Shown: in pieces, positions 422-29,426 of the stretch
Position numbering within the stretch: the stretch's first letter is position 1
Layout of the letters: each line of letters opens with the position of its first letter
Notes under the pieces: model-generated
Databases searched by the model: none
Told to the model about the DNA's origin: nothing
Seen by the model: the letters and a program-made list of their open reading frames with translations, nothing else
Program-made: the position numbers and the translations under genes
Source of the DNA: an uncultured cyanobacterium
Lineage (GTDB): Bacteria; Cyanobacteriota; Cyanobacteriia; PCC-9006; JAAUQQ01
Direction of reading: 5' to 3'
Assembly: GCA_963718615.1 (NCBI GenBank)
Contig: OY970368.1
Location: 576,001 to 640,000, forward strand
Length of the DNA stretch: 64,000 nt

Positions 422-1681
422 ATGATTCAATTAGCAAGTCTCTTTTTATTTTTATTTTTAATTCCAACCTTTTTCGTGGTGCAATCCACTTATAAATTTG
501 TTCGATTTCTTAAGCGATCGCCTCAGCCCATAGCACTTCAAGACGGCAAACTTCCCTCAGTTGCGATTGTGATGAGCGTTCGAGGACTAGATCCATCCTT
601 AAAAGATTGTATCCACTCTTTATTGACTCAAGATTATCCCAATTATCTTATAAAGATTGTTGTGGATAGTAAAGAAGATACAGCCTGGGACTTGTTGCAC
701 CAGATTAGTCAAGACGCTAGTCACGGAAACATCGAGCTACTGCTTTTGAACGTTCGTTATGACACCTGTGGATTGAAGTGTAGTGCCCTCATTCAAGCCA
801 TTTCTCAACTTGATCCAGATTTAGATGTTGTAGCTTTTATCGATTCAGATGTTATCGCTCATCCAACTTGGCTACGGGAACTCGTCACGCCTCTCGCTAA
901 TCCTAAAGTGGGTTTAACGTCTGGTCTTCCATGGTATCTACCGAAAGAAGAAAATGTTGGTTCTCTAGTTCGCTATCTCTGGAATATTTATGGCGTTACA
1001 GGCCGATATATCTGTCGAACGCCTTCAGGTGCTTCCATGGCGATTCAGCGTCATCTACTCACTCAGGAGAAGATACTAGGTGTTTGGCAAAAAGTGCTCT
1101 CAGAGGATATTACCGCCGCTGTAATGATCGAAGATGAAGGATTAGAAATCCAATTCATCCCTTCTCTTATCATGGTCAATCGAGAGAGCTGTACATTACA
1201 GGGCTGCTGGCAGTTTGTAAAACGCCAGTTCTTCTGGACTCGTCTCTATAGTCCCCAATGGACTTTTATCGCGACTCAGGCTTTTTTTCGCCTTATCGTA
1301 CTACTTTCCGCAGCTCTTTTATTACCAATTTCCTTGTTAAAAGGAGATTCTCTCACCACAATGGTTGTAATTGGGGGACTTGCGATCTATTTTGTATCGA
1401 TTGGAATCTCTATTTTTTCAATTCAGAAAAATGTGCAAGGAAAGCTAATTGAAAGGGGAGAAGTTCTTGCTCCTTGCTCAGCATTTGTTTTTCCAAAGCT
1501 TGTCTTTTCTTTTTTGATTGCACATCTAATTGTTCTTGGAGGAACCCTTTCTGCATTAGGCATGCAAAGCATTCAGTGGCGGGAAATCAATTATCAAATT
1601 GAGAACAAGCTAGATATCAGAATGTTAGAGTACTCCCCTTACAAAGGTTCTAATCCAAAGTCAAATGCATCTATTTTATAA
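422..1681 (+). CDS. GT2/GT21-like (ceramide glucosyltransferase/HpnI-like) membrane glycosyltransferase
   Basis: N-terminal TM helix, SLLTQDYPNY, GLKCSAL, DxD motif (IDSD), SED acidic motif, RQFFW, C-terminal TM helices and WREINY. Confidence 0.85.
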   Translation: MIQLASLFLFLFLIPTFFVVQSTYKFVRFLKRSPQPIALQDGKLPSVAIVMSVRGLDPSLKDCIHSLLTQDYPNYLIKIVVDSKEDTAWDLLHQISQDASHGNIELLLLNVRYDTCGLKCSALIQAISQLDPDLDVVAFIDSDVIAHPTWLRELVTPLANPKVGLTSGLPWYLPKEENVGSLVRYLWNIYGVTGRYICRTPSGASMAIQRHLLTQEKILGVWQKVLSEDITAAVMIEDEGLEIQFIPSLIMVNRESCTLQGCWQFVKRQFFWTRLYSPQWTFIATQAFFRLIVLLSAALLLPISLLKGDSLTTMVVIGGLAIYFVSIGISIFSIQKNVQGKLIERGEVLAPCSAFVFPKLVFSFLIAHLIVLGGTLSALGMQSIQWREINYQIENKLDIRMLEYSPYKGSNPKSNASIL

Positions 1682-1974
1682 GATCTATCGATCCTTCAAT
1701 TGATTATTTTTATGCTTATGCGTTCTTATGTGTACTAAGATACAAATACGATACAAGAAAGAGTTCAACCCATAGCCCATAGATAGATAGATACCTTAAC
1801 GGTTAAAAATCTACCGACAAAATCTATTAAGTGTGTCCAGAGTTTTGTATAGATTGCGATTTTTTGACGGTAGAATCAGCGCTTTAGCCTGAACTTATAA
1901 GATTTTGTAAACACTCCCCAAACCTGCCAAGAGTGCCCTGATCAGCAACCTCAGTACGAGCGACACCAAGAATC

Positions 1975-2736
1975 ATGACCGCAGAATACAGTGTTCAACT
2001 TACATCGGATGTCATAGACGAAGGTCAGGTATGTTTTGTCATTACAACCCCAACAGCAACGTACTACTATCAAAAAGAAGGTTGTGCTTTCTCAAGCCTG
2101 ATTGATTGTGACGGCAATGATTGGATTGACTATCACCCCTCGGGAGGAGCTGATGGCAATCACCGGGGTATTCCCAACATGGGTTTCAAAGCTTTTGGTC
2201 ATCCCGGATTCACTAATGGTTCCAAAAGCTGGTTGAGTGAGCAACGTCCTGATTTCGTCCAAATTACCTCGGAGTCTGCAGGCGGCGTCTGGCAGATTGT
2301 CTGGGAGTTTTATCCGGATCGGGCTGTGATGACAGCCAAGGCAATCGGCCAACGGGCCTGGTTGTTATATGAAGGGACACCAGGAGGCAGATTTTGCCCT
2401 GAGGAGCAGTACTGGCTTACCTCTGACGGTAGCGTTCGATCTTGCAGTACCCGATTCCGGGGACATCTACCCAACCCCAAATGGGTTGCATTTTGCGATC
2501 CCCCAAGCTCGCGTTCCCTGGTGCTGTCTTACCAGGGGGAAGCAACTCGAAAAGACGTCTATTGGCCTATGAAAGGAAAAAAGGGAGGGATGACGGTATT
2601 CGGCTTTGGCCGTTCAGACGTTATTTTTCCAAAACTGCACCTCAGTAAAACCCCATTTCAGTTTTCTATTGCATTGATGGAAACTCTAGACTACGAAGTC
2701 ATTAAGAGAGGTCTTGAGAAAGGAATGAAGGAGTAA
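1975..2736 (+). CDS. hypothetical protein, aromatic-rich, possibly a carbohydrate-related beta-sandwich
   Basis: 253 aa ORF with ATG start, co-oriented with neighbours; function not recognised. Confidence 0.6.
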   Translation: MTAEYSVQLTSDVIDEGQVCFVITTPTATYYYQKEGCAFSSLIDCDGNDWIDYHPSGGADGNHRGIPNMGFKAFGHPGFTNGSKSWLSEQRPDFVQITSESAGGVWQIVWEFYPDRAVMTAKAIGQRAWLLYEGTPGGRFCPEEQYWLTSDGSVRSCSTRFRGHLPNPKWVAFCDPPSSRSLVLSYQGEATRKDVYWPMKGKKGGMTVFGFGRSDVIFPKLHLSKTPFQFSIALMETLDYEVIKRGLEKGMKE

Positions 2737-2906: not shown

Positions 2907-4094
2907 ATGCAGTCAACTTCTCAAAAAAGCAGTAAGCTGGCAAATGTTCTTCATTTACCTCTTTTCCTTGGCTCTTTATCTTTTATCTTTCTTTTATTTG
3001 GTCTACCTATTTTTGGGAAATCAATAGGAGCAAGCGCTTTAGAAATTGGCGGGCTTTATTCTATTTTTACAGTCACAACCATGGTGCTAAGGCCCTTTGT
3101 TGGCTGGGCATTAGATCGATATAGCCGTAAACGTTTTTTTGTTGCTTCGTTGCTGAGCTATGCCGTCACAATGCTAGTTTTTGCATTTAGTGAGGGCATT
3201 TCTGGACTTTATATTGCCCGATTTTGTGAAGGGATTGCCGCTGCCTGCCTCTGGATTTCAATCAGGACCATTACGGCAGATCTGTCTGCTCCAGAGGAAC
3301 GGGGCCATGCCATGGGTAAGTTGCAAGAAATTTATACGAGAGCGGGTCTCATTGGAGTTTTTGCTGGATTTGGACTGGTTCGTTTTCTGCCCCACGGTGC
3401 AGCTTGGAAAATCGCATTTTTGGGCTATGCGATCGCCGCTGCAATAGGAGCTTGGCAAGCTTGGCTAGTCGTTCCAGAGACCCGATCATTGCCAAGCGAA
3501 CCGGATGAGCTTCCCAAATCACGTTCAATCTCTCGTCAGTTAATGTTTCTTATGGCGATTGTTTTTACAACGGGTTTAGCGGAAGCATTAATTAGCCCAA
3601 TCTACCTTATTTTTTTACAGGATCGCTTTGAGGCAGGCGTTGTAGCCCTAGCTTGGGCTTTCTTCCCCGCAGGTTTAGTGATGAGTGTGCTACCCAGTTA
3701 TCTGGGGCGGTTAAGCGATCGCCTAGGACGAGCCTCAATGATTGCCACAGGTCTGGCCAGCACAGGCTTACTGTTTGGTTGTTTACCCCTCCTCCCCCAC
3801 ATTGAATGGCTCATTGTTTTATACACGCTTTCCTCCATTGGATTGGCCATGGCCACACCCGCGAAAACCGCGCTTGTTGCAGACTTAAGCCAAAGTCAGA
3901 ACAGAGGAAGTATCTACGGTCTATACGAGTTGGCGCTTCGACTGGGAGCAACCGTAGGACCTCTACTAGGCGGGTGGCTTTACGATTCCATCAGCCACGC
4001 ATTGCCTTTCTATGTCACAGGAGGAATTATGTTGAGCAGCGCAGTTTTAGCCTGCTTTTTACTCAAGCCCAACCTACATCAATCGGCAATTTGA
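2907..4094 (+). CDS. MFS transporter
   Basis: About 12 hydrophobic segments; motif A GWALDRYSRK and GRLSDRLGR; GPLLGGWL. Confidence 0.92.
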   Translation: MQSTSQKSSKLANVLHLPLFLGSLSFIFLLFGLPIFGKSIGASALEIGGLYSIFTVTTMVLRPFVGWALDRYSRKRFFVASLLSYAVTMLVFAFSEGISGLYIARFCEGIAAACLWISIRTITADLSAPEERGHAMGKLQEIYTRAGLIGVFAGFGLVRFLPHGAAWKIAFLGYAIAAAIGAWQAWLVVPETRSLPSEPDELPKSRSISRQLMFLMAIVFTTGLAEALISPIYLIFLQDRFEAGVVALAWAFFPAGLVMSVLPSYLGRLSDRLGRASMIATGLASTGLLFGCLPLLPHIEWLIVLYTLSSIGLAMATPAKTALVADLSQSQNRGSIYGLYELALRLGATVGPLLGGWLYDSISHALPFYVTGGIMLSSAVLACFLLKPNLHQSAI

Positions 4095-4237: not shown

Positions 4238-5158
4238 ATGTCTAGACCAAATCTCAAACAAGACGATGCAAGCAGAGAGGCGAAGGTGCTGATGCCTACC
4301 ATTCGACAAAGGCTTATTCAGTCTAAAGTTGTCGAAAGAAACACAAAAAGAATTGCCTATCTTCTGGCTTCTTCTAATCGGCTTTATCCTCTTCTCTATA
4401 AAGTTTCAAACCGATCATCTCTCACAAATGTATACCACTGCTGTACTCAAAAGACAGCGAGTCAATGGTTTAGATCCATCTTTCATGATCCATTTTTCTA
4501 TAAGAAAACAGGATTGGTGAGCTCTCCCTATATCGAAATGGGTTTACGCACCGCATCCTTTAAAAAAGCACTACCTAAGCGAACGGTTGCGACTCATCTA
4601 TACGTGGGCTATCCCGCCTATTCAACCATTCCTAAGCCAGAAAACTACAAGACCTTTTTTGTTATGAGAGATCCAAGAGATATCGTTGTTTCTTGGTATT
4701 TTTCGGCGAAAAATTCACATGTTCTGATTGATCCAGTGCCTCAAATGCGACTGGATTTAGAACCTCTCAATCTACGGGATGGCTTAATCTATATCATTAA
4801 TCGCTTGCAAGAATTTGGATCGTTTGACGCCCAAAGATCTTGGATGAATGTATCCGAAGAAGGCGATCGCATCAAAATATTCTACTATGAAGCATTAGCC
4901 CATGACGACAAAGCATTTCTTCAATCTCTGTTTGAGTACTTAGAAATAACAGTATCTGATGCAGAGTTATCTGAATTTGTAGAGCGACATACTTTCTCTA
5001 AGTTATCAGGGGGTCGAAAGCCAGGGGAAGAAGATATAAACTCCCATTATCGAAAGGGACAATCAGGGGATTGGAAAAACTATTTTGACAATTCTGTTAT
5101 GTCCCACTTTCGTCAGATAACAGGTCATCTTATCGAAGAACTAGGGTATTCAGATTAG
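4238..5158 (+). CDS. PAPS-dependent sulfotransferase (Sulfotransfer_1 type)
   Basis: 5'-PSB-like QKTASQW, 3'-PB RDPRDIVVSWY, C-terminal YRKGQSGDWKNYF. Confidence 0.9.
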   Translation: MSRPNLKQDDASREAKVLMPTIRQRLIQSKVVERNTKRIAYLLASSNRLYPLLYKVSNRSSLTNVYHCCTQKTASQWFRSIFHDPFFYKKTGLVSSPYIEMGLRTASFKKALPKRTVATHLYVGYPAYSTIPKPENYKTFFVMRDPRDIVVSWYFSAKNSHVLIDPVPQMRLDLEPLNLRDGLIYIINRLQEFGSFDAQRSWMNVSEEGDRIKIFYYEALAHDDKAFLQSLFEYLEITVSDAELSEFVERHTFSKLSGGRKPGEEDINSHYRKGQSGDWKNYFDNSVMSHFRQITGHLIEELGYSD

Positions 5159-5231: not shown

Positions 5232-6326
5232 TCATAGAGGAGCTTCATAGCCCCACTTATCAATGGTAAAACTACAAGTCTGATAAATTCTTTCGATCGC
5301 GCATGAGTCTAAGTGATAAGGATTTTTTAGATATTTTTTCTGTGTATTAATATGTTGGGCAAACTTATCCTGAACATCTTCAAAATTACCAAGATCAAAC
5401 TTTTCATAGATCATTCTCAAGCCTTCTAGCGGATTTTTTTCAAACTTTTCATATCGAATTTCAATCAGATTTTCTGAGGGAATCAGGTTTTGATCTTCAA
5501 AAAATCGATTCATCAACTCTCGATAAATCCAAAATACATTCTCTACCAGGGCATCTTCACTCACAGATTGCAGACCATATCGCTGCGTCATCTGCCTAAG
5601 GGTATGTAGCTTAGAAGCAAAAACAATATAGGGATTCCGATAGATATGAACAAACTTTGCATCAGGGAACAACTCAAGAATAGTTCGAATGCGTGCTGTA
5701 TTAGCCGGACTTTTCAGCAGAAGCTGATGACCCGGCATAGACAAAAAAGAAAACTTTAATATCTTCAGATAATCCAGCTTCCATTGCTCATATTCTTTTT
5801 CAGACATTCCCTTAAATAAAACCGCTTTATCAAAAATCTCGCGTGTATTTTTAGGGAAATAGAAGCTATCAATATAACTATAAAAAGAAGTCGTTGCTAG
5901 AGGAAATTCCTCTTCTTCCGGCTTTTCAAGGGAGAGCTCGATATTGTCCATTGGTCTCTTGTTTGGCATGCTGAGACGAACAATATTTCTTCCCAACCAA
6001 TCGTTTACGATAAAAAGCTCAGGTAGCCACGCATGATAAGAGCTTACATAGCAAAAATTCGGATCTAGACTCATCAAATGATGCAAATAGGTCGTTCCAC
6101 TTCGCCAGTGACCTAAAATGAAAACAGGAGCTTTCGGTAAAATGGAAGATTCTAGACGTTTTCGGTAAAAGTGCTTGATAAAAAAACGCCCAGGTTCGCC
6201 GAGTAGAGTCATCGGAAATGCCATTGCTAACTGAGGCCAATAGTCCTTTTCAACCCCATAGGATCGTATCCTTGAGCATAAAAATCGAGGAGAACCACCA
6301 GCTAGAGGATGCAAACTTATATTCAT
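5232..6326 (-). CDS. sulfotransferase (Sulfotransfer_3 / mycobacterial Stf3-like), paralog A
   Basis: FILGHWRSGTTYLH, RPMDN, LLKSPANTARI, HIYRNPY; ATG at 6326 matches the paralog start (GTG at 6338 also possible). Confidence 0.9.
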   Translation of the reverse strand: MNISLHPLAGGSPRFLCSRIRSYGVEKDYWPQLAMAFPMTLLGEPGRFFIKHFYRKRLESSILPKAPVFILGHWRSGTTYLHHLMSLDPNFCYVSSYHAWLPELFIVNDWLGRNIVRLSMPNKRPMDNIELSLEKPEEEEFPLATTSFYSYIDSFYFPKNTREIFDKAVLFKGMSEKEYEQWKLDYLKILKFSFLSMPGHQLLLKSPANTARIRTILELFPDAKFVHIYRNPYIVFASKLHTLRQMTQRYGLQSVSEDALVENVFWIYRELMNRFFEDQNLIPSENLIEIRYEKFEKNPLEGLRMIYEKFDLGNFEDVQDKFAQHINTQKKYLKNPYHLDSCAIERIYQTCSFTIDKWGYEAPL

Positions 6327-6361
6327 TGCGGCTTTCACCTTGAAAGTTCTGAGTACCTATA

Positions 6362-6495: not shown

Positions 6496-7308
6496 TTAAT
6501 CTAAACTCTTCAGATTGGTTCGAAGACAAGCTAGATTCTCTGGCCTCGGTGTTGCATGGACCAAAAGCCAGTCCCAAGAAACACCTCCTTTCGTCACATA
6601 ATCTTTAAGAACTTTGCGTCCCCGTGAAGTAAATAAAAGCTCTCGGAAAGAAGCCATCGTACCCGGATTGCTTTTTCGTAATTGCCGAGCATCCTTGCGC
6701 GTACATATCCAAGGCTCAACACGATAGGCCTGTAGGTCGAATCCGGCAGCTTCAATCAATCGGAACATTTCTTCTTGATCAAAGGCATGTAAATGATACG
6801 GGTCAATATGACGCGTCTCCCCTAGAGGTACGGAAAGAAATAGATCTCCATCGGGTTTAATCAACTGACGTAGACGCTGGAGAAAAATATTGGGATGGGG
6901 CACATGCTCGATTGTTTCATAGGTAACTACCACATCAAAGAGCTCAGGCCACTCAAATTTTTCAGCATCTCCTTCGTGAAAACTAACGCCCGAAGTACTG
7001 TAATGCTCATTAGCATAGGCAATGCTTTCAGGGGCAATATCAACACCCACTACCTGTTCGGCTCCAGCATCTTTCAGCATCTTAGCGCCAAAGCCAGTGC
7101 CCGTTGCGATGTCTAGAACTTTCTTGCTTGCCACATAGCGACCTGCTGTGACATAGCGCTTGAGATGGATTTCAAGCGCTAGCTGGCTGGAAGCATCTTG
7201 ACCAACCGCTTCCGGAACGAGCCGTTCCCAGACCCCCCAAGTCTTAAGATGGCCTGTGATCGGTTTCTCTGTTTCTCGTGTGTTCGCTGGTTTTACAGTT
7301 TGAGTCAT
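6496..7308 (-). CDS. class I SAM-dependent methyltransferase
   Basis: VLDIATGTGFG, VVGVDI, FDVVVTYETIEHV. Confidence 0.9.
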   Translation of the reverse strand: MTQTVKPANTRETEKPITGHLKTWGVWERLVPEAVGQDASSQLALEIHLKRYVTAGRYVASKKVLDIATGTGFGAKMLKDAGAEQVVGVDIAPESIAYANEHYSTSGVSFHEGDAEKFEWPELFDVVVTYETIEHVPHPNIFLQRLRQLIKPDGDLFLSVPLGETRHIDPYHLHAFDQEEMFRLIEAAGFDLQAYRVEPWICTRKDARQLRKSNPGTMASFRELLFTSRGRKVLKDYVTKGGVSWDWLLVHATPRPENLACLRTNLKSLD

Positions 7309-7386: not shown

Positions 7387-8139
7387 TTAGCGCGTTTTAA
7401 TGACGATGGCATGGCCATTAAGATTGTGGATAACAACGCGATCGCCCAATTTTCGCTGTTCATCCACAAATCTCGTAATCCCACTACAAATCATAAAGCC
7501 ATAATCGTCATAGACAACCATCCCCCCCACTTCTAGCCGTTCCCACACCCAATCCAGCACTTCTTTAGCACTTTCATAGACGTCTACATCGATATGGCAA
7601 AGGCGAAAACGCTCATTATCCGGAATGAGATGAGCAGTTTCATCCGGGAAAATCCCCTTGAGGATTTTGACATTCTTGAGATTCAGATTATCTAGATTCT
7701 TTTGAACATATTCTACTGACGTATCAGAATGCTCCCCACCTTTATAAACCGAATCCTTAGTTGAAGCTTTGACAACCCCCTCAAACGTATCACAAAGATA
7801 AATAGGGGCTTGAATTCCACAATGCTCGGCTTGCTTTGCCATCAAGGCCCCTGTGCCTCCTCGCCAAACTCCCACTTCAATAATGCTGCCGTTCAGCGAA
7901 GCTGTTTGCTCCACTAACTGCCAAAGCTCGTAACAGCGATACCAGTCCACCATCGTGTAGGGAAAGATCTTCCAGTAAATATCCTTGAATGCCTGATCAG
8001 CCTTCCAGGGTGCATAGGTGGCGTAGGGTTTATTGAACCGGTAGGGTTGATCTCGATGGGTTAAATGATAGAGCGCACACTTGGCACGATAACTTGTAAC
8101 ATTCTTGAATCCACGTAGCAGTGCTGTAAAAAGTTCCAT
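7387..8139 (-). CDS. TylF/MycF/NovP-family sugar O-methyltransferase
   Basis: IIEVGVWRGG, CDTFEG, KGIFPDET, HIDVDVYES, GGMVVYDDYG. Confidence 0.9.
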   Translation of the reverse strand: MELFTALLRGFKNVTSYRAKCALYHLTHRDQPYRFNKPYATYAPWKADQAFKDIYWKIFPYTMVDWYRCYELWQLVEQTASLNGSIIEVGVWRGGTGALMAKQAEHCGIQAPIYLCDTFEGVVKASTKDSVYKGGEHSDTSVEYVQKNLDNLNLKNVKILKGIFPDETAHLIPDNERFRLCHIDVDVYESAKEVLDWVWERLEVGGMVVYDDYGFMICSGITRFVDEQRKLGDRVVIHNLNGHAIVIKTR

Positions 8140-13114: not shown

Positions 13115-13128
13115 CGGTGGTGCCCTCT

Positions 13129-20211: not shown

Positions 20212-21939
20212 CTAGGCCACCTGAGAATTGAGGGGAAAAATCGTCGCTTCTGCCCCTTGAACCAAACTGTAAATCGTGCCGTCTTCGTCATGAACAGTAA
20301 TGTCAATGACCAACCGGGTTTCCGTTTTCGAGACCAGTTTGGTCGTGGTGTAGAACGGTTTGTCGTAGGGGGCGCTGGAAAAGTTTTCAAACCGAACAAT
20401 TTTGGCGGGCAAGCAAACGGAATTGTAAAAATGCCGCAGCCAAATCCAAACGGAATGGGTTTGAATATCGGAAATATAGGGATTAATCGTTTGAGCCGGA
20501 AACTGGCCTTGACCCCGAGGGCCAATGTCATGGGCAAAATACTCCGCCGTCACCTGCTGCTCATCGATATTGAGAATGCGCTGAAGCCCCTGGAAGCCGG
20601 AACCATGGAACAGGGGATTGGGCTCGACGGTATAAAAATCCTGACCCGTCATCGTAATGACATGGTCCGGCGTTAGGTTAAACTGCTCCAACTTGGGTGC
20701 CGCAGGAATCTCCCGCACCAGGGTAAAGCGATTGCTGAAGTGATAGCGGGGCTTGCCGTTGGGTCCCAGGCTCCAGACTTTGCCTTCCAAAACAATCTTT
20801 TCTTCGCTCTTGACCCTTTCCTGCAGGTCTAGCACATATTCATCCGCTAGATTTTCGTCAAAGACCACGCCCTTCAGGACCTTGACCTCCTCGCAAACAA
20901 AGCATTTGTAGCCGGGATAGAGCTGTTCGCCTGCATTGGCTAGCCAGGAAATCGAACAGGTAAAGGGCAAAACCGGCGTCCCAGAAATGACGTGATCCAG
21001 GAGAAAGGGATTCTCTTCCAGGCTCAGTCGTCGCCGTAGACGATGGGTCTTCAGCTCATCCGTGACCAGCGCCAACGGCGGATGAATCGGTCCACCTACA
21101 ACCACCTGGGCCACGCCATGATGACGGGGGTTGAGCTCGTTGACAAGCATATCCGTCGCTTCATCCACCGGCAGAATATCGATTTTGCGCAAGGCAAAGG
21201 CTTTTTTCAGCTCGGGCGTCACCATACCACTGTCCCAGGGACCCCAGTTGATCGCCACCACATGGCAGGTGGGATGCTGCTGCTTGATCAGCCAAGCGGC
21301 TTTGTTGAGGATTTCGTTGGAGAGGGTATAGTCCGACTGACCGGCGTTGCCATAAAACCCCGCCACGGATGAAAACAACACAAGATATTGGAGTTGACTG
21401 GGGGGAACGAGGGTGAGCAAATTCTCCAGTCCTTTAATTTTGGGACCGTAGACCCGCTCAAAATCCTGTTCGGTTTTCTTTTCGATCAGCTTATCGGCAA
21501 GGTTTCCCGCGCCATGGATAATGCCGTTGATCGGCCCAAATCGAGCCACCACGGGCGCTAGCTGGGTTTGGAGTACCGCCAAATCCGTCACATCGGCACT
21601 GAGATAAACCGCTTCGTTCCCTAGGGACGCCAGGGTGTCGAGGGTGTGTTTAATTTCGCGGTTGGAGAGGAGCGATCGATAAACCTGATTAATCGCCATG
21701 GGCGTGGGCTTTTCGCCGCGAGCGATAAAGTCCTGCATGATCCGCTGCTTGAGCTCGGGTTCCTCGGTGCAGCCTGCGGCCCAGACCGGTTCGGTTTCTG
21801 CGAGGTGCGATCGCCCCAACAAAATCCACTTACACTGCGCCGAACGCGCCACTTTCATCACACATTCAGCGGTGACCCCGCGAGCACCGCCACTCACCAG
21901 AAATACGGTAGAGGCAGGGACTTGAGCTGTAGTTACCAT
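20212..21939 (-). CDS. hglG: HglG-like ketoreductase + PKS-type dehydratase
   Basis: GGARGVT, HGAGNLADK, GQSDY, NWGPWDSGMV; DH motif HVISGTPVLP. Confidence 0.88.
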   Translation of the reverse strand: MVTTAQVPASTVFLVSGGARGVTAECVMKVARSAQCKWILLGRSHLAETEPVWAAGCTEEPELKQRIMQDFIARGEKPTPMAINQVYRSLLSNREIKHTLDTLASLGNEAVYLSADVTDLAVLQTQLAPVVARFGPINGIIHGAGNLADKLIEKKTEQDFERVYGPKIKGLENLLTLVPPSQLQYLVLFSSVAGFYGNAGQSDYTLSNEILNKAAWLIKQQHPTCHVVAINWGPWDSGMVTPELKKAFALRKIDILPVDEATDMLVNELNPRHHGVAQVVVGGPIHPPLALVTDELKTHRLRRRLSLEENPFLLDHVISGTPVLPFTCSISWLANAGEQLYPGYKCFVCEEVKVLKGVVFDENLADEYVLDLQERVKSEEKIVLEGKVWSLGPNGKPRYHFSNRFTLVREIPAAPKLEQFNLTPDHVITMTGQDFYTVEPNPLFHGSGFQGLQRILNIDEQQVTAEYFAHDIGPRGQGQFPAQTINPYISDIQTHSVWIWLRHFYNSVCLPAKIVRFENFSSAPYDKPFYTTTKLVSKTETRLVIDITVHDEDGTIYSLVQGAEATIFPLNSQVA

Positions 21940-22002: not shown

Positions 22003-22773
22003 TCACTGGGCGAGGAAACCGCCATCCACCGCGAGGGTATGTCCGACCACGAAGGAAGACGCGTCGGAACACAGCCAGATCACCGCATTGGCAATTTCCG
22101 CCTGGGTTCCCAAACGCCCTGCGGGTACAAAGGCTTGGAGCCAGGTGTCAAACTGGGAGGTATGTCCGCCCAGATTATTCTCAATCATAGGGGTCTGAAC
22201 ATAGCCCGGACAGATGGCATTAATCCGGATCCCGGTCCTAGCATATTCGGCGGCAGCGGCTCTTGTCAGGCCAATGACGCCATGTTTACTGGTGACGTAG
22301 GCCATGTAGCCTTTCATGCCACTACTTAGACCATGCACGGAGGACATATTGACGATCGCCCCGCCCCCCTGCTCCCGCATAAACGGAATCGCATATTTCA
22401 TGCAGAGCCAAACCCCCTTGAGGTTGATGCCCATGACGCGGTCCCAGTTTTCTTCCGTGCAGGCGGAGGTGGAGGCGCGATCGCCTTCAATCCCAGCGTT
22501 ATTAAACAAACAATCGACAGCACCGAAAACTTCAACGGTCTTGCGGACCATGGCTCGGACTTCGGCGGCCTGGGAGACATCCGTTTGGATAAATAGCGCT
22601 TCGCCGCCCATCTGATGAATCTGATGGACCGTCTTCTCGCCGCCTTCCACAGCCACATCGGAAACCACAACCTTGGCACCCGCTTCGGCAAAGGCAAAGG
22701 CCGAGGCTTGGCCAATGCCTGAGCTACCACCCGTAACTAGGGCAACTTTTCCGTCAAGACGGGGGGTGATCAC
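22003..22773 (-). CDS. classical SDR oxidoreductase (glucose-1-dehydrogenase/FabG-like)
   Basis: TGGSSGIG, NNAG, YVTSK, INAICPG, VDGG; GTG start with AGGAG RBS. Confidence 0.9.
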   Translation of the reverse strand: MITPRLDGKVALVTGGSSGIGQASAFAFAEAGAKVVVSDVAVEGGEKTVHQIHQMGGEALFIQTDVSQAAEVRAMVRKTVEVFGAVDCLFNNAGIEGDRASTSACTEENWDRVMGINLKGVWLCMKYAIPFMREQGGGAIVNMSSVHGLSSGMKGYMAYVTSKHGVIGLTRAAAAEYARTGIRINAICPGYVQTPMIENNLGGHTSQFDTWLQAFVPAGRLGTQAEIANAVIWLCSDASSFVVGHTLAVDGGFLAQ

Positions 22774-23012: not shown

Positions 23013-26000
23013 CTAGGCTGCGACGAGGGTAACTCGCCCCTGTTGGCCATAGGCGGCTTCTGGCAACAAGCCATCGGAATCGTGGAGTTCCGCCAGGATG
23101 CAGGCAACGGACTGCTCCGGGGTCAACGCCGGGTTAAGGTCCACCGCTCGGCAGAAGACCGAGCGCCACTCATAGTTGAGAGTTTTGGTGAGTCCCATCA
23201 AGCCTGCGGCAATCGGGCTGTACGGGTCCTGTTGGCTTAGACCGAAGGCCCCATCCAGCCGAGCAACGCTGAGGAAGACGCTGCGACCCAGGGTGGCTGC
23301 TTGGTTCAGCGGCGCTTTGAGATGCTTGGCCAAGAAGAAGACCTGTTTCACCAAACTGGATTCTGCCTCCGAAAAGCTGAGCCCTTGGCCCGCCTGGACA
23401 AAGCCAGTGGGATGAAGGTGGAGGAACGCCGCAATCGACCCTTCTTGGGTGGCGATCGCCTCCAGTTGCTGACCAAGCGCCACATCACCAAGCTGCTCTA
23501 GAACCACCCGCTTAACGCCCTGGGGCAAGGGTGCTTGCTGGGGAACCAACCCAGCCGGGAAGCTTAGAACCACGACCTTCCAATTCCGCTGGGTTAATTG
23601 CTGAGCCAGTTGGGTCGTGGTGGCCGAACCATCGTCGGTCAGGAGGCAAATGTGGCCGGAGGGCAATTCAAAGTCCAGCCAATCGGCAGGGGGCAAGTAT
23701 TGCAGCTGGGCCGGATGCCGAGGCAGGGGCAGGGGGTCAAGAGCGACGGCAGCTTCTAGGGCTGCGATATCCCAAGTGGTGACCCCTCCTTGGATCCCCT
23801 CGTTAAGCGTAGGACTGGACTGCTTTTTTTTTTCGGCACCGGTTTGCAGCCGAGCCTGCATATAGTCCGCCACTTGGCCCAGGGTCCGCAGCTCAATTTC
23901 AGCTAGCTCTTCCAGATTTGGCTGGGGCAGCTCCGGAAAGGCCTCTTGGAGTGCTCCGAGAATTTCAACCCGCTTGATGGAGTCAATCCCCAAATCCGCT
24001 TCCATGTCCATGTCCAGCTCTAGCATCTCAGCGGGATAGCCAGTTTTGTCACTGACGACCGCTAGGAGTTGGGTCTGCATTTCGCCGGGGGCGATCGCGA
24101 CCACCGGTTCGCTAGGGACGGCTAGAGGAGCGATCGCCTCGCCTGCATTCACTAGACCTGAATTTACTAGACCTGAAGCCACCTGGCCTTTCGCTAACTG
24201 GGACTGCATATAGTCCGCCACTTGGCCCAGGGTCCGCAGCTCAATTTCAGCTAGCTCTTCCAAATTCGGCTGGGGCAATGCAGGGAAAGCCTCCTGGAGC
24301 GCACCAAGGATTTCAACCCGCTTGATGGAGTCAATCCCCAGATCCGCTTCCATGTCCATGTCCAGCTCTAGCATCTCGGCGGGATAGCCAGTTTTGTCGC
24401 TGACGACCTCCAGGAGTTGGGTCTGCATCTCAACCGAGCTCACGCTGGCCGGGGCCGTTGCGGGAACCGGGGCGACTGCTGGGATGACTGCTGGGATACC
24501 TGCCGGAGCCACTACCGGGGGGTCTAAAAGGGCCACGGTGGTGCTTGCTTGGGCCGTTGCCAAGGCCGGGGCCGCGACGGGTGCTATGGGTCTAGGCACC
24601 GGGGCAGAAACAGGAGTTGCGATGGACTGACTGGGCACGCCCAAAGACATAGCAGGGGTCGCCATCGGTGCCGGTGCCGTCCCAGACGCTGTCCCAGGCG
24701 CTGTCGGGAGAACCACTGCCGGGGTCACAGGCGCAGACCCGTTCCCCTTGCCCTTAGCCAACTGAGCTTGCATATAGTCCGCCACTTGGCCCAGGGTCCG
24801 CAGCTCAATTTCAGCCAGCTCTTCCAAATTCGGCTGAGGCAGTTCCGGAAAGGCTTCTTGGAGTGCTCCGAGAATTTCAACCCGCTTGATGGAGTCAATC
24901 CCCAGGTCTGCCTCCATGTCCATGTCTAGCTCCAGCATCTCGGCGGGATAGCCTGTCTTGTCGCTCACAACTTCGAGGAGCTTTTCCTGCATGACACCGC
25001 TGGCAACCGTTGGGGCGATCGCGGCTGTAGTCGCGACAGGCGAAGTTGCTACGGGCGAGGTCACCGCCATCGGGGTCGCAGCAACTGGAGTTACCGCAAT
25101 CGGAGCTGTCATCATTGGAGCTGCTATGGGAGCCGCAGCCAGTGCTTCACCCTTGAGCTTAGACTGCATATAGTCCGCCACTTGGCCCAGGGTCCGCAGT
25201 TCAATTTCAGCCAACTCTTCCAAATTCGGCTGGGGCAGTTCCGGAAAGGCGTCTTGGAGCGCTCCGAGAATCTCAACTCGCTTGATGGAGTCAATCCCCA
25301 GATCCGCTTCCATATCCATGTCCAGTTCCAACATTTCTACGGGATAGCCCGTTTTGTCGCTCACAACCTCAAGCAGCTTGGGGGCAAGGGCCAAAGCATT
25401 CGACCTTGAAGCAGGAGCCGGAGCGGGAACCGGAATGGGCTCTGGTTGGACAACCGGCTGGACAACTGGCTGGATAACCTTAGCAACCGGGACTTCCGGC
25501 ACAGGGGCAGCCTTGACCACTGGGTCGGCGGCAACCGCTACTGGCGGAGGGGTAACGGGGGCCACTGGAGCCGCTGGCTGTACGGGCTGTACGGGCTGGA
25601 CAGTGGTCGCTGATTGAACCGTTCCTCCACAGACCTGCTGGCCTAGGCCGCAAAGTTGCTTTGAGAACTCCATCTGCTGGAGTAAATACTGCTCATGGAC
25701 CCGCAAAGTTTCCTGCTGATAGCCATGGAACGCCGCTAAGTTGCGATCCGTGCTGGCCACTAAATCCGCCTGCTGGCCTGCTGCTTCCGTCAGCAAACGC
25801 TGTTGCTGTTGTGCAATTTGCCCAAAGGTCTGGGTGTATTCCCGATGGCCATCGAGATATTGCTCATGCACCTTCAAAATTTGATTTTGGTGCTGAGTGA
25901 ACTGAACCAGCAGATTTTCCAGACTCGTGAGGGCCGGATGCGGAGATTGGGCAGAATTTTGCATAACGGTTATCGGGGCGACATCAGTTTGAGCGGGGGG

Positions 26001-29000
26001 AGGCAGGGTGGCCTTTTGAGTCTGTCCAACAGAGGGTTGACCATTGATCTGGCCAATCGAAAGATTTTGCGCAGCGTGGCCGTTGGTTTTACCATTGACC
26101 ATCTTGCCGTTACCGCTGCCATTGCCATTGGCCTTGCCGTTGCCGTTGCCATTGGTCTTGCCATTGCCGTTGCCATTGCCATTGGTCTTGCCGTTGCCAT
26201 TCAGTGACCCATGACTGGATACACCAGGGCTAGATGCACCATGACTTGCACCCGGCTCAAGCGTGACCGGCGGTTCAGCCAAGAATCCATGCTTTTGGGC
26301 CACAGGCGACACCCCTGGACTCGCGATCGCCCCAGACTCAACGGCTGAACCAACCGCTGAAACGATAGTGGGAACAGACGACGAAACCGCAATCTTAACT
26401 TGGTGACCATCCTGAAGCGCCGCTTCAAAGGCATTCTGGGTTTTCTCGCTGACGTAGCTTGCCCCACTAATTTTCACCATTAGCTTCTTCGCCCGTTCAT
26501 CGGGCTCAGCCGGGACTGCAATGGGCAACTGATAGGGGTCAATATCTGCCAGCGATAACCCTGCCACTCGCAATTGCATCGCCGCTTCGCGTAATTGCAG
26601 ATCGCTGTCCTTATGGCGGCTGGCATTGGTTGCGATCGCCAAGTGGGGGCGATCGCCCAAGATTTCCTTCACCAAATTGGTCAGCGTATTCTTCGGACCA
26701 AATTCAACAAAACAAACGCCTCCGGCAGCATAGATGTTCTCAATTTGTTGTTTGAACTGAACCTGGCTCACCATATGTCGCTGGAGGAGCGTTTTCATCG
26801 CGCCAACCTCAGCGGGGTAGACCTGTCCGGTGACATTGGTATAAATCGGCGTGGTGGGTGTACCCAAGGCGACTTGATCGACAGCTTGACTAAAGGGCAC
26901 CTGGGCATGGGCCACTAGCGGGGTATGGAACGCCGCAGACACCCGCAGGGGAATCGGCTCAAACCCTCGGGCTTCGAGGGTGGTTTTGGCGGCGGCGATC
27001 GCCGCCGTTGATCCCGCCAGCACCACCTGCTGTCCAGAGTTAAAGTTGGCGATCGCCACCCCCTCCAGGGCATTGACAATCGACTCAATCACCGCCGCAT
27101 CGCCCTTGACCGCCAGCATCGTCCCGGCATCAAAATCCCGACCCGCCGGAGCCGCCATCGCCTGACCCCGTGCCTTGACCAAGAAGGCATAATCTTGATC
27201 CGTCAGCACACCGGCGGCCCACAGGGCCGTGAGTTCGCCAAAACTATGACCTGCCGTAAAGTTGGGCGCAAATCCCGCTTTCTGGAAAATCCGATAAAGC
27301 CCCGTGCTAAACGCACCAATGGCAGGCTGGGCATATTCGGTTCGCTGAAGCTTGCGCTTTTGCGCTTCTGCCGACGCGTCGTCAAAAACAGAGCGAGGAT
27401 AGACCACCTCAGAAATGGCGTCCAACCCATCAGCCCGTAGCAACTGATCAAACGGCTCATAGGCTTGCCGAGCTTCTGGGAAGTTCACCGCAAGGCTTTG
27501 TCCCATGTCGAGGTACTGCGCCCCTTGGCCCGCAAACAAGGCTACGACTTTGCCCTGGAGCGCTAAACCGGACTGACGGTAATAAATGCCCTGGGGATGT
27601 TCCCAAGCCTCCCGCTTTTGTTGATTCAGCAGATTGATGGCGACCTTGAGCTTGGCACAGGCATCTGCGCGGGAGCTAGCCACAAAACCCAATCGGGCTT
27701 CCGTCATGGGAATCACTTGGGTTTTGCAGGATTCTGCCAGGTCGGCATAGGCGCGATCGCCCCCCGCTTCAGCCTGCAAGGCCGAGAGCACCGCCTGACA
27801 CCGCTGCGTCAATGCCGCCGTATCAGCCGCCGCAAAGAGCAGCGATTGCGGCACCGAATGAATCCGATACGGAGCGGAATGTTCCGATTGATACTCTTCT
27901 AGGACGATGTGGAAATTAGTTCCACCAAATCCGAACGAACTGACCCCAGAACGACGTGGAATTTGCGCTTCTCGACGCATCCAGGGCCGCAATTTGGTGT
28001 TGAGGTAAAACGGAGAATCTTCAATGCCTAGCTTGGGGCTGGGCTGATTGATATTGATCGTGGGGGGAATCACCTTGTGATGCAGTGCCAACGCAGCCTT
28101 AATCAAGCTGGCTGCCCCCGCAGCGGTTTTGGTGTGACCAATTTGAGCCTTGACGCTCCCTAGGGCGATCGACTGCTTTTCGGCCTGGGTTTCTGCGAAG
28201 ACCACTTTCATGCCTTCAAACTCTGCCGGATCCCCAGCCATTGTGCCTGTACCGTGGGCTTCCACCAATCCCACCGTTGCGGGATCAATGTTGGCATCGG
28301 CATAGGCGCGACGCAGGGCCTTGACTTGGCCTTCTGGACGGGGGGCATAGATACTCTTGAAGCGGCCATCGCTGGAGGTCCCGAGACCCCGAATGACGGC
28401 GTAGATGCGATCGCCATCGCGCTCCGCATCCTCCAACCGCTTGAGCACCACCATGCCGACCCCTTCGCCCAGCATGATGCCATCGGATTCCGCATCAAAG
28501 GGACGAGATTCTTGTTTACGAGACAGGGCAGGCGTTTTGCTAAAGCAGAGATAGGTAAAGGCAGAGTTGTCCGGGTCTACCCCCCCCGTCAGCATCATGT
28601 CAGCACGATGCTCGACCAACTCACTAATGGCCATCTTCAGCGCCGCCAAAGAACTCGCACAGGCTGCATCCAACGTGCAGTTCAACCCCCCAAAGTCAAA
28701 ACGATTGGCAATTCTCCCGGAAATCACATTCGAGAGCATGCCAGGGAAGGAATTCTCTTGCCAACTGGGATAGGCCAGCTTGAGTTTCTCGATCAGCTTT
28801 TGCGTATCTTCATCGGACAGGCCGCTGCTCTTCAGCACCCGCTCCCAAATGGGATACTGCAAACGCCCCCACAACGGCCCACTCAACTGCCGCCCCACGG
28901 CCCCGAGCACGACCCCTGTCTTCTCATAATCCACATCAAGCTGAGCAGGGCCATAGCCCGAATCTTCCATCGCTTGACGGGCCACCGCTAGGGCCAAAAG

Positions 29001-29426
29001 TTGGGAGATATCGGTTGCCTCCAGAACATTGGGCGGCAAGCCAAACTCCATGGGGTTGAAATCAATCTCTGGGATAAAACCACCCCGTTTGCAATAGGTT
29101 TTATCAACGGCCCGAGGGTTGGGATCGTAGTAGTCCGAGCTATTCCAGCGGGACGCCGGTACCTCGGTAATACAATCCACCTCATTGAGAATATTTTCCC
29201 AATAGACTTGAGTATTTTCCGACTGTGGGAAAAGAGAAGCCATGCCAATAATTGCAATGGGCGTCTGACTCAAGCTAGGTTTACCCGCACTTAGACCAAC
29301 CATAGATTTCGTTGACTGATTCAACATTGTCTTCTTTTCCCTAATCATTTCTGAAACAGTCTGCTCAAAAGCATCTAAATCTTCTCGAAACTCATCTAAA
29401 GAGTTACGTATTTTGGAAGCAAACAT
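23013..29426 (-). CDS. hglE: HglE/PfaA-like iterative type I PKS: KS-AT-(ACP)x4-KR structural subdomain (HglF-like)
   Basis: KS DAACASS/EAHGTGT/GHTK; AT GHSFG and SAAFHT; four LGIDSIKRVEIL ACPs; C-terminal ARLDGAFG...KTLNYEW. Confidence 0.93.
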   Translation of the reverse strand: MFASKIRNSLDEFREDLDAFEQTVSEMIREKKTMLNQSTKSMVGLSAGKPSLSQTPIAIIGMASLFPQSENTQVYWENILNEVDCITEVPASRWNSSDYYDPNPRAVDKTYCKRGGFIPEIDFNPMEFGLPPNVLEATDISQLLALAVARQAMEDSGYGPAQLDVDYEKTGVVLGAVGRQLSGPLWGRLQYPIWERVLKSSGLSDEDTQKLIEKLKLAYPSWQENSFPGMLSNVISGRIANRFDFGGLNCTLDAACASSLAALKMAISELVEHRADMMLTGGVDPDNSAFTYLCFSKTPALSRKQESRPFDAESDGIMLGEGVGMVVLKRLEDAERDGDRIYAVIRGLGTSSDGRFKSIYAPRPEGQVKALRRAYADANIDPATVGLVEAHGTGTMAGDPAEFEGMKVVFAETQAEKQSIALGSVKAQIGHTKTAAGAASLIKAALALHHKVIPPTININQPSPKLGIEDSPFYLNTKLRPWMRREAQIPRRSGVSSFGFGGTNFHIVLEEYQSEHSAPYRIHSVPQSLLFAAADTAALTQRCQAVLSALQAEAGGDRAYADLAESCKTQVIPMTEARLGFVASSRADACAKLKVAINLLNQQKREAWEHPQGIYYRQSGLALQGKVVALFAGQGAQYLDMGQSLAVNFPEARQAYEPFDQLLRADGLDAISEVVYPRSVFDDASAEAQKRKLQRTEYAQPAIGAFSTGLYRIFQKAGFAPNFTAGHSFGELTALWAAGVLTDQDYAFLVKARGQAMAAPAGRDFDAGTMLAVKGDAAVIESIVNALEGVAIANFNSGQQVVLAGSTAAIAAAKTTLEARGFEPIPLRVSAAFHTPLVAHAQVPFSQAVDQVALGTPTTPIYTNVTGQVYPAEVGAMKTLLQRHMVSQVQFKQQIENIYAAGGVCFVEFGPKNTLTNLVKEILGDRPHLAIATNASRHKDSDLQLREAAMQLRVAGLSLADIDPYQLPIAVPAEPDERAKKLMVKISGASYVSEKTQNAFEAALQDGHQVKIAVSSSVPTIVSAVGSAVESGAIASPGVSPVAQKHGFLAEPPVTLEPGASHGASSPGVSSHGSLNGNGKTNGNGNGNGKTNGNGNGKANGNGSGNGKMVNGKTNGHAAQNLSIGQINGQPSVGQTQKATLPPPAQTDVAPITVMQNSAQSPHPALTSLENLLVQFTQHQNQILKVHEQYLDGHREYTQTFGQIAQQQQRLLTEAAGQQADLVASTDRNLAAFHGYQQETLRVHEQYLLQQMEFSKQLCGLGQQVCGGTVQSATTVQPVQPVQPAAPVAPVTPPPVAVAADPVVKAAPVPEVPVAKVIQPVVQPVVQPEPIPVPAPAPASRSNALALAPKLLEVVSDKTGYPVEMLELDMDMEADLGIDSIKRVEILGALQDAFPELPQPNLEELAEIELRTLGQVADYMQSKLKGEALAAAPIAAPMMTAPIAVTPVAATPMAVTSPVATSPVATTAAIAPTVASGVMQEKLLEVVSDKTGYPAEMLELDMDMEADLGIDSIKRVEILGALQEAFPELPQPNLEELAEIELRTLGQVADYMQAQLAKGKGNGSAPVTPAVVLPTAPGTASGTAPAPMATPAMSLGVPSQSIATPVSAPVPRPIAPVAAPALATAQASTTVALLDPPVVAPAGIPAVIPAVAPVPATAPASVSSVEMQTQLLEVVSDKTGYPAEMLELDMDMEADLGIDSIKRVEILGALQEAFPALPQPNLEELAEIELRTLGQVADYMQSQLAKGQVASGLVNSGLVNAGEAIAPLAVPSEPVVAIAPGEMQTQLLAVVSDKTGYPAEMLELDMDMEADLGIDSIKRVEILGALQEAFPELPQPNLEELAEIELRTLGQVADYMQARLQTGAEKKKQSSPTLNEGIQGGVTTWDIAALEAAVALDPLPLPRHPAQLQYLPPADWLDFELPSGHICLLTDDGSATTTQLAQQLTQRNWKVVVLSFPAGLVPQQAPLPQGVKRVVLEQLGDVALGQQLEAIATQEGSIAAFLHLHPTGFVQAGQGLSFSEAESSLVKQVFFLAKHLKAPLNQAATLGRSVFLSVARLDGAFGLSQQDPYSPIAAGLMGLTKTLNYEWRSVFCRAVDLNPALTPEQSVACILAELHDSDGLLPEAAYGQQGRVTLVAA
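23857..25380 (-). repeat. four near-identical ~210-bp ACP-coding repeats
   Basis: At about 23857-24078, 24206-24429, 24768-24990 and 25165-25380. Confidence 0.92.
26104..26201 (-). repeat. low-complexity (NG)n linker repeat in hglE
   Basis: ttgcca/ttgccg hexamers encoding NGNGKTNGNGNGNGKTNGNGNGKANG. Confidence 0.9.

Follow-up and report, generated by a model that had tools for sequence, protein, structure and literature searches.

To date, the closest described counterpart of the locus reported here is the hgl island of the Nostocales, which represents the Type F class of secondary-lipid synthase clusters. It encodes a ketosynthase–acyltransferase protein with serial acyl carrier proteins (KS-AT-ACPn), a ketoreductase–dehydratase (KR-DH) protein, a ketosynthase–chain length factor–acyltransferase (KS-CLF-AT) protein without a FabA-type dehydratase, and the enoyl reductase PfaD, followed by an ACP, a thioester reductase, and a short-chain dehydrogenase/reductase (SDR). 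The glycosyltransferase of the heterocyst glycolipid pathway, HglT, belongs to family GT4. The same core is present in the window, i.e., the whole 64,000-nucleotide stretch of DNA analyzed here (G000:C1:576001–640000), which comes from the closed 6.10-Mb genome of an uncultured cyanobacterium (G000). It is part of a cluster of approximately 42 kb (G000:C1 563,549–605,426, i.e., window positions −12,451 to 29,426). Proteins of the window and of the 20 kb to its left (L012) were scanned with Pfam and NCBIfam profiles, and genomes were compared at the protein level. Relative to the hgl island, the cluster has an extra FabG-like SDR gene between the first two core genes, separate genes for the ACP and the thioester reductase, and GT1 and GT2 proteins in place of the GT4 enzyme HglT. 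A major facilitator superfamily (MFS) protein is its only transporter, with no Dev/Hgd exporter in the cluster, and an AGPS module, sugar genes, two O-methyltransferases, three sulfotransferases, and an adenosine 5′-phosphosulfate (APS) kinase are added. Family scans of the 42 kb detected neither a GT4 nor an ABC/DevB gene, HglT itself not having been searched with a model of its own.

The AGPS module recalls a second group of systems. Known bacterial ether-lipid routes include ElbD, AGPS in myxobacteria, PlsAR, and Ger. The peroxisomal and myxobacterial pathway employs GNPAT, AGPS, and an acyl/alkyl-dihydroxyacetone phosphate (DHAP) reductase; a full-length AGPS homolog is also present in the cluster, with an acyltransferase of the PlsC superfamily, a reductase, and a phosphatase encoded next to it. 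Bacterial AGPS is known from Myxococcus xanthus and is discussed for Myxococcus and Acidobacteriota (10.64898/2026.06.23.733905). In the present cluster, however, a polyketide synthase (PKS) and a carrier-protein thioester reductase, and no fatty acyl-CoA reductase, would supply the alcohol; the host is an oxygenic phototroph, several sugars and methylations would be involved, and the reductase is not of the DHRS7B type by any test made. The animal sulfated glycolipid seminolipid follows the same logic, leading from an alkyl-glycerol to a glycoside and then to a sulfate with a glycosyltransferase and a sulfotransferase dependent on 3′-phosphoadenosine 5′-phosphosulfate (PAPS), a logic that the genes of the cluster would share.

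The reading favored here, at slightly less than even odds (a probability of roughly 0.45), is that the ~42 kb form a single cluster that makes a sulfated, methylated glycolipid in which a long hydroxylated alkyl chain is ether-linked to glycerol. What is observed is which genes are present, to what they are homologous, that a second genus conserves the set, and that an AGPS module also occurs beside another thioester reductase; each chemical step, the order of the steps, and the product are predicted from these observations. The product would probably be a type of sulfated glycolipid that has so far not been reported from bacteria. A literature search, which did not cover subscription journals, brought up neither a description of AGPS in cyanobacteria nor a link between an hgl-type PKS and sulfotransferases. 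The prediction is an unusual and specific one that can be tested, but it builds on gene content and one informative relative.

Boundaries and Conservation of the Cluster

All 17 genes named in the initial annotation are open reading frames at the positions listed in Table 1, and the domain content proposed for them is supported by Pfam or NCBIfam in 15 of the 17 cases. The extent of the cluster, by contrast, needs revision. It does not end at position 422, where it had been thought to begin, but continues to the left, 12.5 kb of it lying beyond the window edge in L012. The left border was placed at the AGPS gene because the six G000 genes to the left of it have no counterpart on contig C212 of G003, a genome of the same family but another genus. 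This placement carries a caveat: in G000, a hydrolase and a Baeyer–Villiger-type monooxygenase trail AGPS with gaps of only 60 and 34 bp. These two genes (G000:C1:561079–563488, L012:5079–7488, minus strand) encode a flavin monooxygenase that resembles PtlE (230 bits, below the cut-off) and an alpha/beta hydrolase. G003:C212 contains no counterpart of the two, which may be an extension specific to G000 and may cleave a keto group in the lipid chain. On the right, the cluster ends with the HglE-like gene, beyond which dnaB is found in both G000 and G003.

Of the 28 genes from AGPS to HglE, 27 occur on contig C212 of G003 (56–86% identity), the Sulfotransfer_1 gene (ST1) being the exception. The block consisting of the HetN-like SDR, the GT2 paralog, the Sulfotransfer_3 enzyme ST3b, TylF, and the methyltransferase keeps its order, while the other tailoring genes are rearranged. 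In this second genus, the tailoring genes are kept together with the PKS, which supports the initial annotation. In addition, the extended SDR and the haloacid dehalogenase (HAD) phosphatase, which are separate in G000, are fused in G003 into a protein of 560 amino acids whose gene overlaps the methyltransferase stop by 8 nucleotides within the PKS-led strand run. A SulP sulfate permease gene comes after this fusion. Two further genomes, G017 and G024, contain a PfaD cluster and a Sulfotransfer_3 homolog (33–34% identity) on separate contigs and provide no evidence either way.

The minus-strand genes in the window part of the cluster are separated by 12 to 287 bp. From the reductase gene to the methyltransferase gene, they lie on a single strand with gaps of 12–87 bp, and a simple scan found no terminator-like site on that strand in this interval. 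A search of sequencing runs for the locus gave no RNA run; it gave four DNA runs in which the share is small and one added run with almost none. Upstream of the HglE-like gene there is a gap of 1.6 kb. The GC content of the genome is 52.3%, which is only moderate and does not agree with the GC-rich host that had been assumed. Within the cluster it is uneven, amounting to 53–58% in the PKS genes against 38–49% in the tailoring genes. The genes for PIG-L, GT2, and the Sulfotransfer_3 enzyme ST3a are also the lowest in GC in G003 (42–44%), which indicates that this odd composition is older than the split of the two genera.

Hgl-Type Synthase Core

The HglE-like protein contains four near-identical ACPs, with LGIDS sites at residues 1377, 1509, 1697, and 1813. 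The extra SDR, which is FabG-like and whose gene separates the HglE-like gene from the KR-DH gene, is present in G003 and in G001, a member of the same genus as G003, at 82–83% identity; no counterpart occurs at that position in G058, G024, or G017. By these comparisons, the insertion is peculiar to the cluster of the host family. The PfaD protein is 58–64% identical to those of other cyanobacterial families. The thioester reductase, 51% identical to its counterpart in G058, is predicted to free the chain as an aldehyde or alcohol. The SDR at the HetN position shows 70% identity to the protein of G003 and 50% to that of G495, and its orthology to HetN, judged by 32% identity to the G058 gene, is weak.

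Among 401 genomes of the host’s class, a PfaD search gave matches in 53. Locus A of G058, a member of family f31, encodes the HglE-like protein, KR-DH, KS-CLF-AT, PfaD, ACP, reductase, and SDR in the same order, with identities of 48–62% except for the last SDR. The core gene order is also identical in G017, G024, and G495. According to Shulse and Allen (2011; PMC3098273), the Type F (hgl) cluster is characterized by KS-CLF-AT on one protein and by the lack of FabA-type dehydratase/isomerase domains. In agreement with this, Pfam and NCBIfam scans list no FabA-type domain for any cluster protein. The PfaA-like KS-AT-ACP protein, PfaD, the ACP with its thioester reductase, and the shared gene order likewise identify the core, at the level of sequence, as an hgl-type (Type F) synthase, which supports the hgl-type assignment of the initial annotation.

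Predicted Ether-Lipid Module and Possible Supply of the Alcohol

On the minus strand of L012, the APS kinase gene is accompanied by genes for the extended SDR, an acyltransferase of the PlsC type, a phosphatase of the HAD-IB family (TIGR01490; 152 bits, cut-off 98), and a 601-residue AGPS homolog. The latter consists of FAD_binding_4 and FAD-oxidase_C domains, and its residues 23–587 align with residues 94–656 of mammalian AGPS (PDB 4bby) at an E value of 2.2e-144; matches to other flavoenzymes have E values of 1e-18 or weaker. The segments SHHHGVGK, CIYF, and ASVRL align with the corresponding mammalian segments. They contain the His-His-His loop, Tyr, and Arg that we take to be catalytic residues of mammalian AGPS (615–617, 578, and 419, respectively), and these residues are invariant in four cyanobacterial proteins. 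By sequence criteria, the flavoprotein is a homolog of alkyl-DHAP synthase (AGPS), and the exchange reaction is predicted for it.

AGPS is rare in the host’s class. At an E value of 1e-40 or better, it was found in six of the 401 genomes, namely G000, G001 (as a fragment), G003, G495, G525, and G574. A phylum-wide sample yielded it in 30 of 401 genomes, and the 29 besides G000 all belong to other classes, so that ether-lipid capacity seems far commoner in non-photosynthetic relatives. The AGPS homologs of these 29 genomes are 28–46% identical.

In G525, an acyltransferase-HAD-AGPS module lies approximately 700 bp from a divergently transcribed gene for a 1697-residue protein that combines an AMP-ligase domain with domains for an acyl-CoA dehydrogenase, an ACP, and a thioester reductase. 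The best G000 match of this reductase domain is the cluster reductase (50% identity), compared with 39% for a G000 reductase encoded at 5.30 Mb. By its gene content, the G525 arrangement is a second kind of cyanobacterial AGPS locus. On contig C62 of G525, it spans L067:12220–17313 (minus strand) and L067:18007–20000 (also L063), and a DegT/EryC1-type aminotransferase gene comes after it. Acyltransferase-AGPS also occurs in G574, and acyltransferase-HAD-AGPS in the metagenome locus L149. Thus, the module recurs, twice beside a carrier-protein reductase that would be able to supply the alcohol of AGPS.

In the model of the initial annotation, the PKS alcohol receives a sugar directly at C-1, and the glycoside undergoes O-methylation and sulfation afterwards. 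AGPS, the acyltransferase, and HAD would in that case form a neighboring ether-lipid unit that handles ordinary fatty alcohols, or they would have another role. Such a model agrees with the collinearity of the core with an hgl-type locus and with the presence of GT1 and sugar genes in the cluster, but the AGPS-acyltransferase-HAD-SDR module outside the window makes ether-linked glycerol more likely. Although AGPS modules without a PKS are found in G574 and in most metagenome loci, the ether module of G003 is kept inside the cluster despite the rearrangement, and the gene for the fused SDR and HAD is coupled in translation to the tailoring genes within the PKS operon. Moreover, AGPS requires a fatty alcohol, the PKS reductase is the only alcohol-forming enzyme in the cluster, and in G525 the module adjoins a homologous reductase. 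Again in favor of the direct glycoside, a homolog of the extended SDR is encoded near the hgl-type PKS of G058, a genome in which AGPS was not detected (see below). On balance, direct glycosylation of the PKS alcohol is considered somewhat unlikely.

Table 1. Cluster features in window coordinates, with the profile or alignment evidence for each.
Feature	Position	Strand	Evidence
PIG-L family de-N-acetylase, 3′ end (263 aa; start G000:C1:575479)	1..270	+	PIG-L E 7.6e-18 on the L012 part
Membrane GT2/GT21, HpnI-like	422..1681	+	Glyco_tranf_2_3 62.8 bits, Glyco_transf_21 48.6 bits, both above cut-offs
253-aa protein, mutarotase-like	1975..2736	+	No Pfam/NCBIfam match; G003 ortholog 74% identical
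MFS transporter	2907..4094	+	MFS_1 E 3.3e-53; G003 ortholog 65% identical
Sulfotransfer_1 enzyme (ST1)	4238..5158	+	Pfam E 5.1e-19, 69 bits vs 22
Sulfotransfer_3 enzyme (ST3a)	5232..6338	-	Pfam E 1.4e-32, 114 bits vs 27; HWRSGTT loop
Methyltransf_11, class I S-adenosylmethionine methyltransferase	6496..7308	-	Pfam E 3.7e-19; G003 ortholog 81% identical
TylF-family O-methyltransferase	7387..8139	-	TylF 94.4 bits vs 23; G003 ortholog 77% identical
Sulfotransfer_3 enzyme (ST3b)	8177..9295	-	Pfam E 2.9e-34, 120 bits vs 27; HWRSGTT loop
GT2-fold membrane protein, 438 aa, no DXD	9353..10669	-	BLASTP to the GT2 of 422..1681: 26% identity, E 2e-28
Classical SDR at HetN position	10757..11656	-	adh_short E 1.2e-46
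Thioester reductase	11669..13114	-	TIGR01746 355 bits vs 213; NAD_binding_4 E 2.6e-72
Stand-alone ACP	13129..13476	-	PP-binding E 1.5e-14; 14-bp gap to reductase gene
PfaD/HglA-type enoyl reductase	13764..15410	-	TIGR02814 650 bits vs 449
KS-CLF-AT, HglD + HglC equivalent, 1560 aa	15459..20141	-	Two ketoacyl-synt stretches, Acyl_transf_1; TIGR02816 (PfaB family) 147.6 bits vs 144.3
KR-DH protein, HglG equivalent, PfaA C-terminus	20212..21939	-	KR, PKS_DH_N, PS-DH domains; PfaA model positions 1992–2573
FabG-like SDR	22003..22773	-	NF004818 339 bits vs 336
HglE-like protein, PfaA N-terminal part: KS, AT, four tandem ACPs, C-terminal linker region	23013..29426	-	TIGR02813 2001 bits vs 1010; four PP-binding stretches

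Sugar-Related Genes and Glycosyltransferases

The plus strand of L012, running into the window, encodes a cytidylyltransferase, an epimerase/dehydratase, two Methyltransf_14 proteins, a GT1, and PIG-L. The first is a glucose-1-phosphate cytidylyltransferase (TIGR02623, 378 bits against a cut-off of 300), the Methyltransf_14 proteins are sugar C-methyltransferases, and the GT1 is of the EryCIII/macrolide-glycosyltransferase kind. The initial annotation had seen no hglT gene in the window; a lipid-type glycosyltransferase, this GT1, is located just outside it, beside the genes for cytidine diphosphate (CDP)-sugars and C-methyl sugars.

The membrane GT2 encoded at 422–1681 has an intact DSD at residue 141 and an ortholog of 63% identity in G003. 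Its best NCBIfam model is HpnI, at 84.3 bits, far below the cut-off of 310, so it is not assigned to HpnI. An adjacent pair of PIG-L and a membrane GT2 with HpnI as the best model is likewise reminiscent of HpnI and HpnK, the hopanoid side-chain enzymes, although in addition to the low score there are no hopanoid genes nearby. The position of PIG-L, whose G003 ortholog is 70% identical, next to the HpnI-like GT2 suggests transfer of N-acetylglucosamine (GlcNAc) to a lipid hydroxyl, followed by de-N-acetylation.

The 438-residue protein encoded at 9353–10669 had been named a glycosyltransferase. It does have the GT2 fold and is a paralog of the GT2 above; yet no Pfam family matches it even at an E value of 0.1, and there is no D.D tripeptide anywhere in the protein. 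At the DXD position, all five members of its subfamily have SPQ, TPQ, SSR, or SSQ, while the GT2 proteins aligned with them read DSD or DAD there (DST in a single distant homolog). Its model has a pLDDT of 74, with hyaluronan and cellulose synthases as the top folds. Only five close homologs were found in a collection of 5.8 billion proteins, and a locus search with the alignment of the DXD-less GT2 retrieved a single genome contig (L015, 61,906 bases, labeled as a Synechococcales metagenome-assembled genome) and none among metagenome contigs. The protein is possibly a non-canonical, non-catalytic membrane partner.

The 253-residue protein belongs to a widespread uncharacterized family with 626 homologs, whose sources include Pontiella, Verrucomicrobia, Planctomycetota, and Chloroflexi. 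Its AlphaFold2 model (pLDDT 92.6) gave 1jov as the top Foldseek match (E 2.3e-8, TMq 0.59), followed by mutarotases. Since the model is a galactose-mutarotase-like β-sandwich, the protein probably handles sugar. One homolog of 72% identity, P0015, is recorded as a protein of 413 residues with an MFS domain and is either a fusion of two neighboring genes or a gene-calling artifact. The MFS protein of the cluster has efflux families as its closest NCBIfam models, all of them below the cut-off, and is a candidate exporter.

Sulfotransferases and Sulfate Activation

Three sulfotransferases are encoded in the cluster. ST3a and ST3b combine the Sulfotransfer_3 domain with a 5′-phosphosulfate loop and are, by these sequence features, PAPS-dependent sulfotransferases. 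The G003 ortholog of ST3a is 65% identical and has moved beside GT2; that of ST3b is 73% identical. ST1 is nearest to cytosolic alcohol and hydroxysteroid sulfotransferases (PDB bile-salt and alcohol enzymes, E 4e-9). It contains an RDP-type 3′-phosphate motif; its Pfam match begins at profile position 53, and the 5′-phosphosulfate loop pattern is unmatched. A tblastn search found no counterpart of it on G003:C212. The APS kinase (L012:12459–12986) scores 226 bits, and the next APS-kinase match in the 6.1-Mb genome scores 23.8 bits, so that the enzyme in the cluster is, on profile scores, the only clear one of the genome. Together with the conserved tailoring genes and the sulfate permease of G003, this APS kinase makes a sulfated, methylated, glycosylated lipid the natural product class, in line with what had been suggested before.

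The nearest PDB sequences of ST3b are 2zq5 and 2z6v (E ~1e-8). The database names both uncharacterized proteins, and we take them to be mycobacterial Stf enzymes. Mycobacterial sulfolipid-1 and the sulfated glycopeptidolipids, with Stf, likewise combine a PKS-made lipid with sugars, O-methyl groups, and sulfate; yet the sequence similarity is weak, and neither the PKS type nor the sugars nor the envelope is the same. A sulfotransferase also accompanies a cyanobacterial PKS in CurM/olefin-synthase off-loading, and ST3b weakly matches the CurM sulfotransferase (E 6e-4). However, release here would be by the reductase, the sulfotransferases have genes of their own, placed downstream of the release step, and the cluster proteins contain no thioesterase domain. 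CurM-like sulfonation-dependent release was accordingly rejected.

Two more Sulfotransfer_3 paralogs, 50% and 44% identical to ST3b and without biosynthetic neighbors, are encoded elsewhere in G000, at C1:315162–316250 (L013:10126–11268) and C1:5681357–5682436 (L014:10330–11436). The paralog on L014 lies by a vanadium-haloperoxidase-like gene (L014:8026–9636), and the other by DUF1214/DUF1254 and IS21-type transposition genes.

These paralogs at unrelated loci, the absence of ST1 from G003, and the difference in GC content between the tailoring and PKS genes would fit a view in which two or three unrelated units merely adjoin. The PKS would then make a plain hgl-like lipid, and the sulfotransferases, methyltransferases, and GT2 proteins would decorate, e.g., a sulfated extracellular polysaccharide or another small molecule. 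A terminator-like hairpin (6390–6368), which sets the last sulfotransferase, ST3a, apart from the operon, points in the same direction. From the reductase to the methyltransferase, however, the genes follow one another closely on one strand, as described above, and in the same order in G003, where the left flank is not conserved whereas the cluster is. Furthermore, Pfam scans from L012:532 to window position 34793 revealed no Wzx, Wzy, Wza, or ABC polysaccharide-export domain. With no polymerase, flippase, or export genes found in that interval, a sulfated polysaccharide locus has been mostly rejected, and a chance neighborhood of unrelated units is regarded as improbable.

Proposed Pathway and Weight of the Evidence

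In the ether-linked glycolipid reading, the pathway would start with the iterative hgl-type synthase (the HglE-like KS-AT-ACP4 protein, the extra SDR, KR-DH, KS-CLF-AT, and PfaD), which would build a very long acyl chain carrying some hydroxyl or keto groups. The free ACP and the thioester reductase would release it as a fatty alcohol. The PlsC-type acyltransferase would form acyl-DHAP, in which the AGPS homolog would exchange the acyl group for the PKS alcohol to give alkyl-DHAP. Reduction of the ketone by an SDR and removal of the phosphate by the HAD phosphatase would then yield 1-O-alkylglycerol; the extended SDR is the likeliest ketone reductase because it is fused to HAD in G003. The GT1 could add a CDP-derived C-methylated hexose, and the HpnI-like GT2 a GlcNAc that PIG-L would de-acetylate. 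Finally, TylF and Methyltransf_11 would methylate the product, the three sulfotransferases would sulfate it with PAPS derived from the APS kinase of the cluster, and the MFS protein would export it.

A bolder version of this pathway is offered as tentative. In it, an oxygenic phototroph passes a very long hydroxy-alcohol of polyketide origin to an animal-type AGPS, and the resulting ether lipid is then glycosylated, methylated, and sulfated. Seminolipid would thereby gain a bacterial counterpart, which would represent a new class of anionic glycolipids, either secreted or located in the envelope. Ether lipids would for the first time be reached from a PKS via AGPS, and the DXD-less GT2 paralog would be a non-catalytic membrane partner that presents or flips the lipid.

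Several observations weigh against a single ether-lipid cluster. Only one other genome, G003, is informative for the whole set, and as this relative also has dnaB as a neighbor, synteny by descent could account for part of the co-location. G001 speaks neither for nor against the linkage. Its assembly (93% complete, 310 contigs) has the PKS and the AGPS fragment at a contig end, the contig breaks right after PfaD, and TylF, an ortholog of the reductase, and a close match to the DXD-less GT2 were not found in it. In the 80 metagenome AGPS loci, neither an hgl-type PKS nor a sulfotransferase accompanies AGPS. In G495, AGPS and the hgl-type PKS are located on different contigs, with no tailoring genes in the 40 kb examined beside the PKS. 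The hairpin ahead of ST3a counts here as well, as does a second strong thioester-reductase protein in G000, the one at 5.30 Mb mentioned above. Moreover, we know of no demonstration that AGPS accepts very long hydroxylated alcohols.

The ketone reductase is a further weak point. Among the 63 metagenome loci that retain at least 40% of AGPS, 13 have a classical SDR directly after it (L081, L095, L106, L111, L112, L115, L120, L123, L125, L127, L131, L132, and L134, the SDR starting within ~200 bp), and this combination is likely to be a bacterial acyl/alkyl-DHAP reductase pair. In addition, a homolog of the extended SDR with 53% identity is encoded 4 kb upstream of the HglE-like gene in G058 (C1 ~4578489–4579466, L076), and the two samples that included G058 gave no AGPS match for it. 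The extended SDR may thus serve the PKS rather than AGPS, perhaps as a regular but unremarked companion of hgl synthases, and with the 13 loci taken into account, its role as the alkyl-DHAP reductase is tentative.

If the ether-linked glycolipid is real, the combination of AGPS with an hgl-type synthase would be a testable source for the unusual alkyl-glycerol lipids of mats and sediments, and the heterocyst-glycolipid machinery would be used beyond heterocysts. A sulfated glycolipid class would be added to cyanobacterial envelopes, and it could serve as a biomarker or surfactant. Because the genome of the host is closed, the prediction can be tested directly, provided that the strain is amenable to cultivation and manipulation.

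Host and Possible Role in Nitrogen Fixation

A search of the genome for hetR and nif, which the initial annotation had called for, detected nifH (473 bits) and nifD (847 bits), both above cut-offs and at 4.07 Mb, as well as two hetR-type genes (HetR_C matches). The host is thus a diazotroph. That it is non-heterocystous, as assumed before, is probable from its family placement and the source labels of relatives: the nearest ones are labeled Synechococcales, and the host family differs from f31.

Heterocyst glycolipids limit gas diffusion, and an envelope lipid doing the same, or otherwise aiding nitrogen fixation, would fit either chemistry. Besides the nif and hetR-type genes, the hgl-type synthase and three DevB-family genes above the cut-off elsewhere in the genome are compatible with such a role; however, the DevB model also scores above the cut-off in one of 14 non-heterocystous control genomes, the cluster is located 3.5 Mb from nif, and anionic, heavily decorated lipids are not known as gas barriers. 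A role of this type is therefore judged improbable. The genome further contains one Sfp-type phosphopantetheinyl transferase gene, at 334 kb.

Flanking Genes

Between the HglE-like gene and dnaB, two open reading frames of 267 and 305 codons are found at 31068–31871 (plus strand) and 31957–32874 (minus strand), neither of which has a Pfam match or a counterpart on G003:C212. A chemotaxis-like operon occupies 35520–43061 on the minus strand. It encodes a hybrid Hpt-HATPase-CheW-receiver kinase, a methyl-accepting chemotaxis protein with dCache and HAMP domains, CheW, a single-domain receiver, and a DUF4388-receiver protein. The cyanobacterial origin of the window is evident from other genes in it, for a phycobilisome protein of the allophycocyanin type, pentapeptide kinases, and Uma2 proteins.

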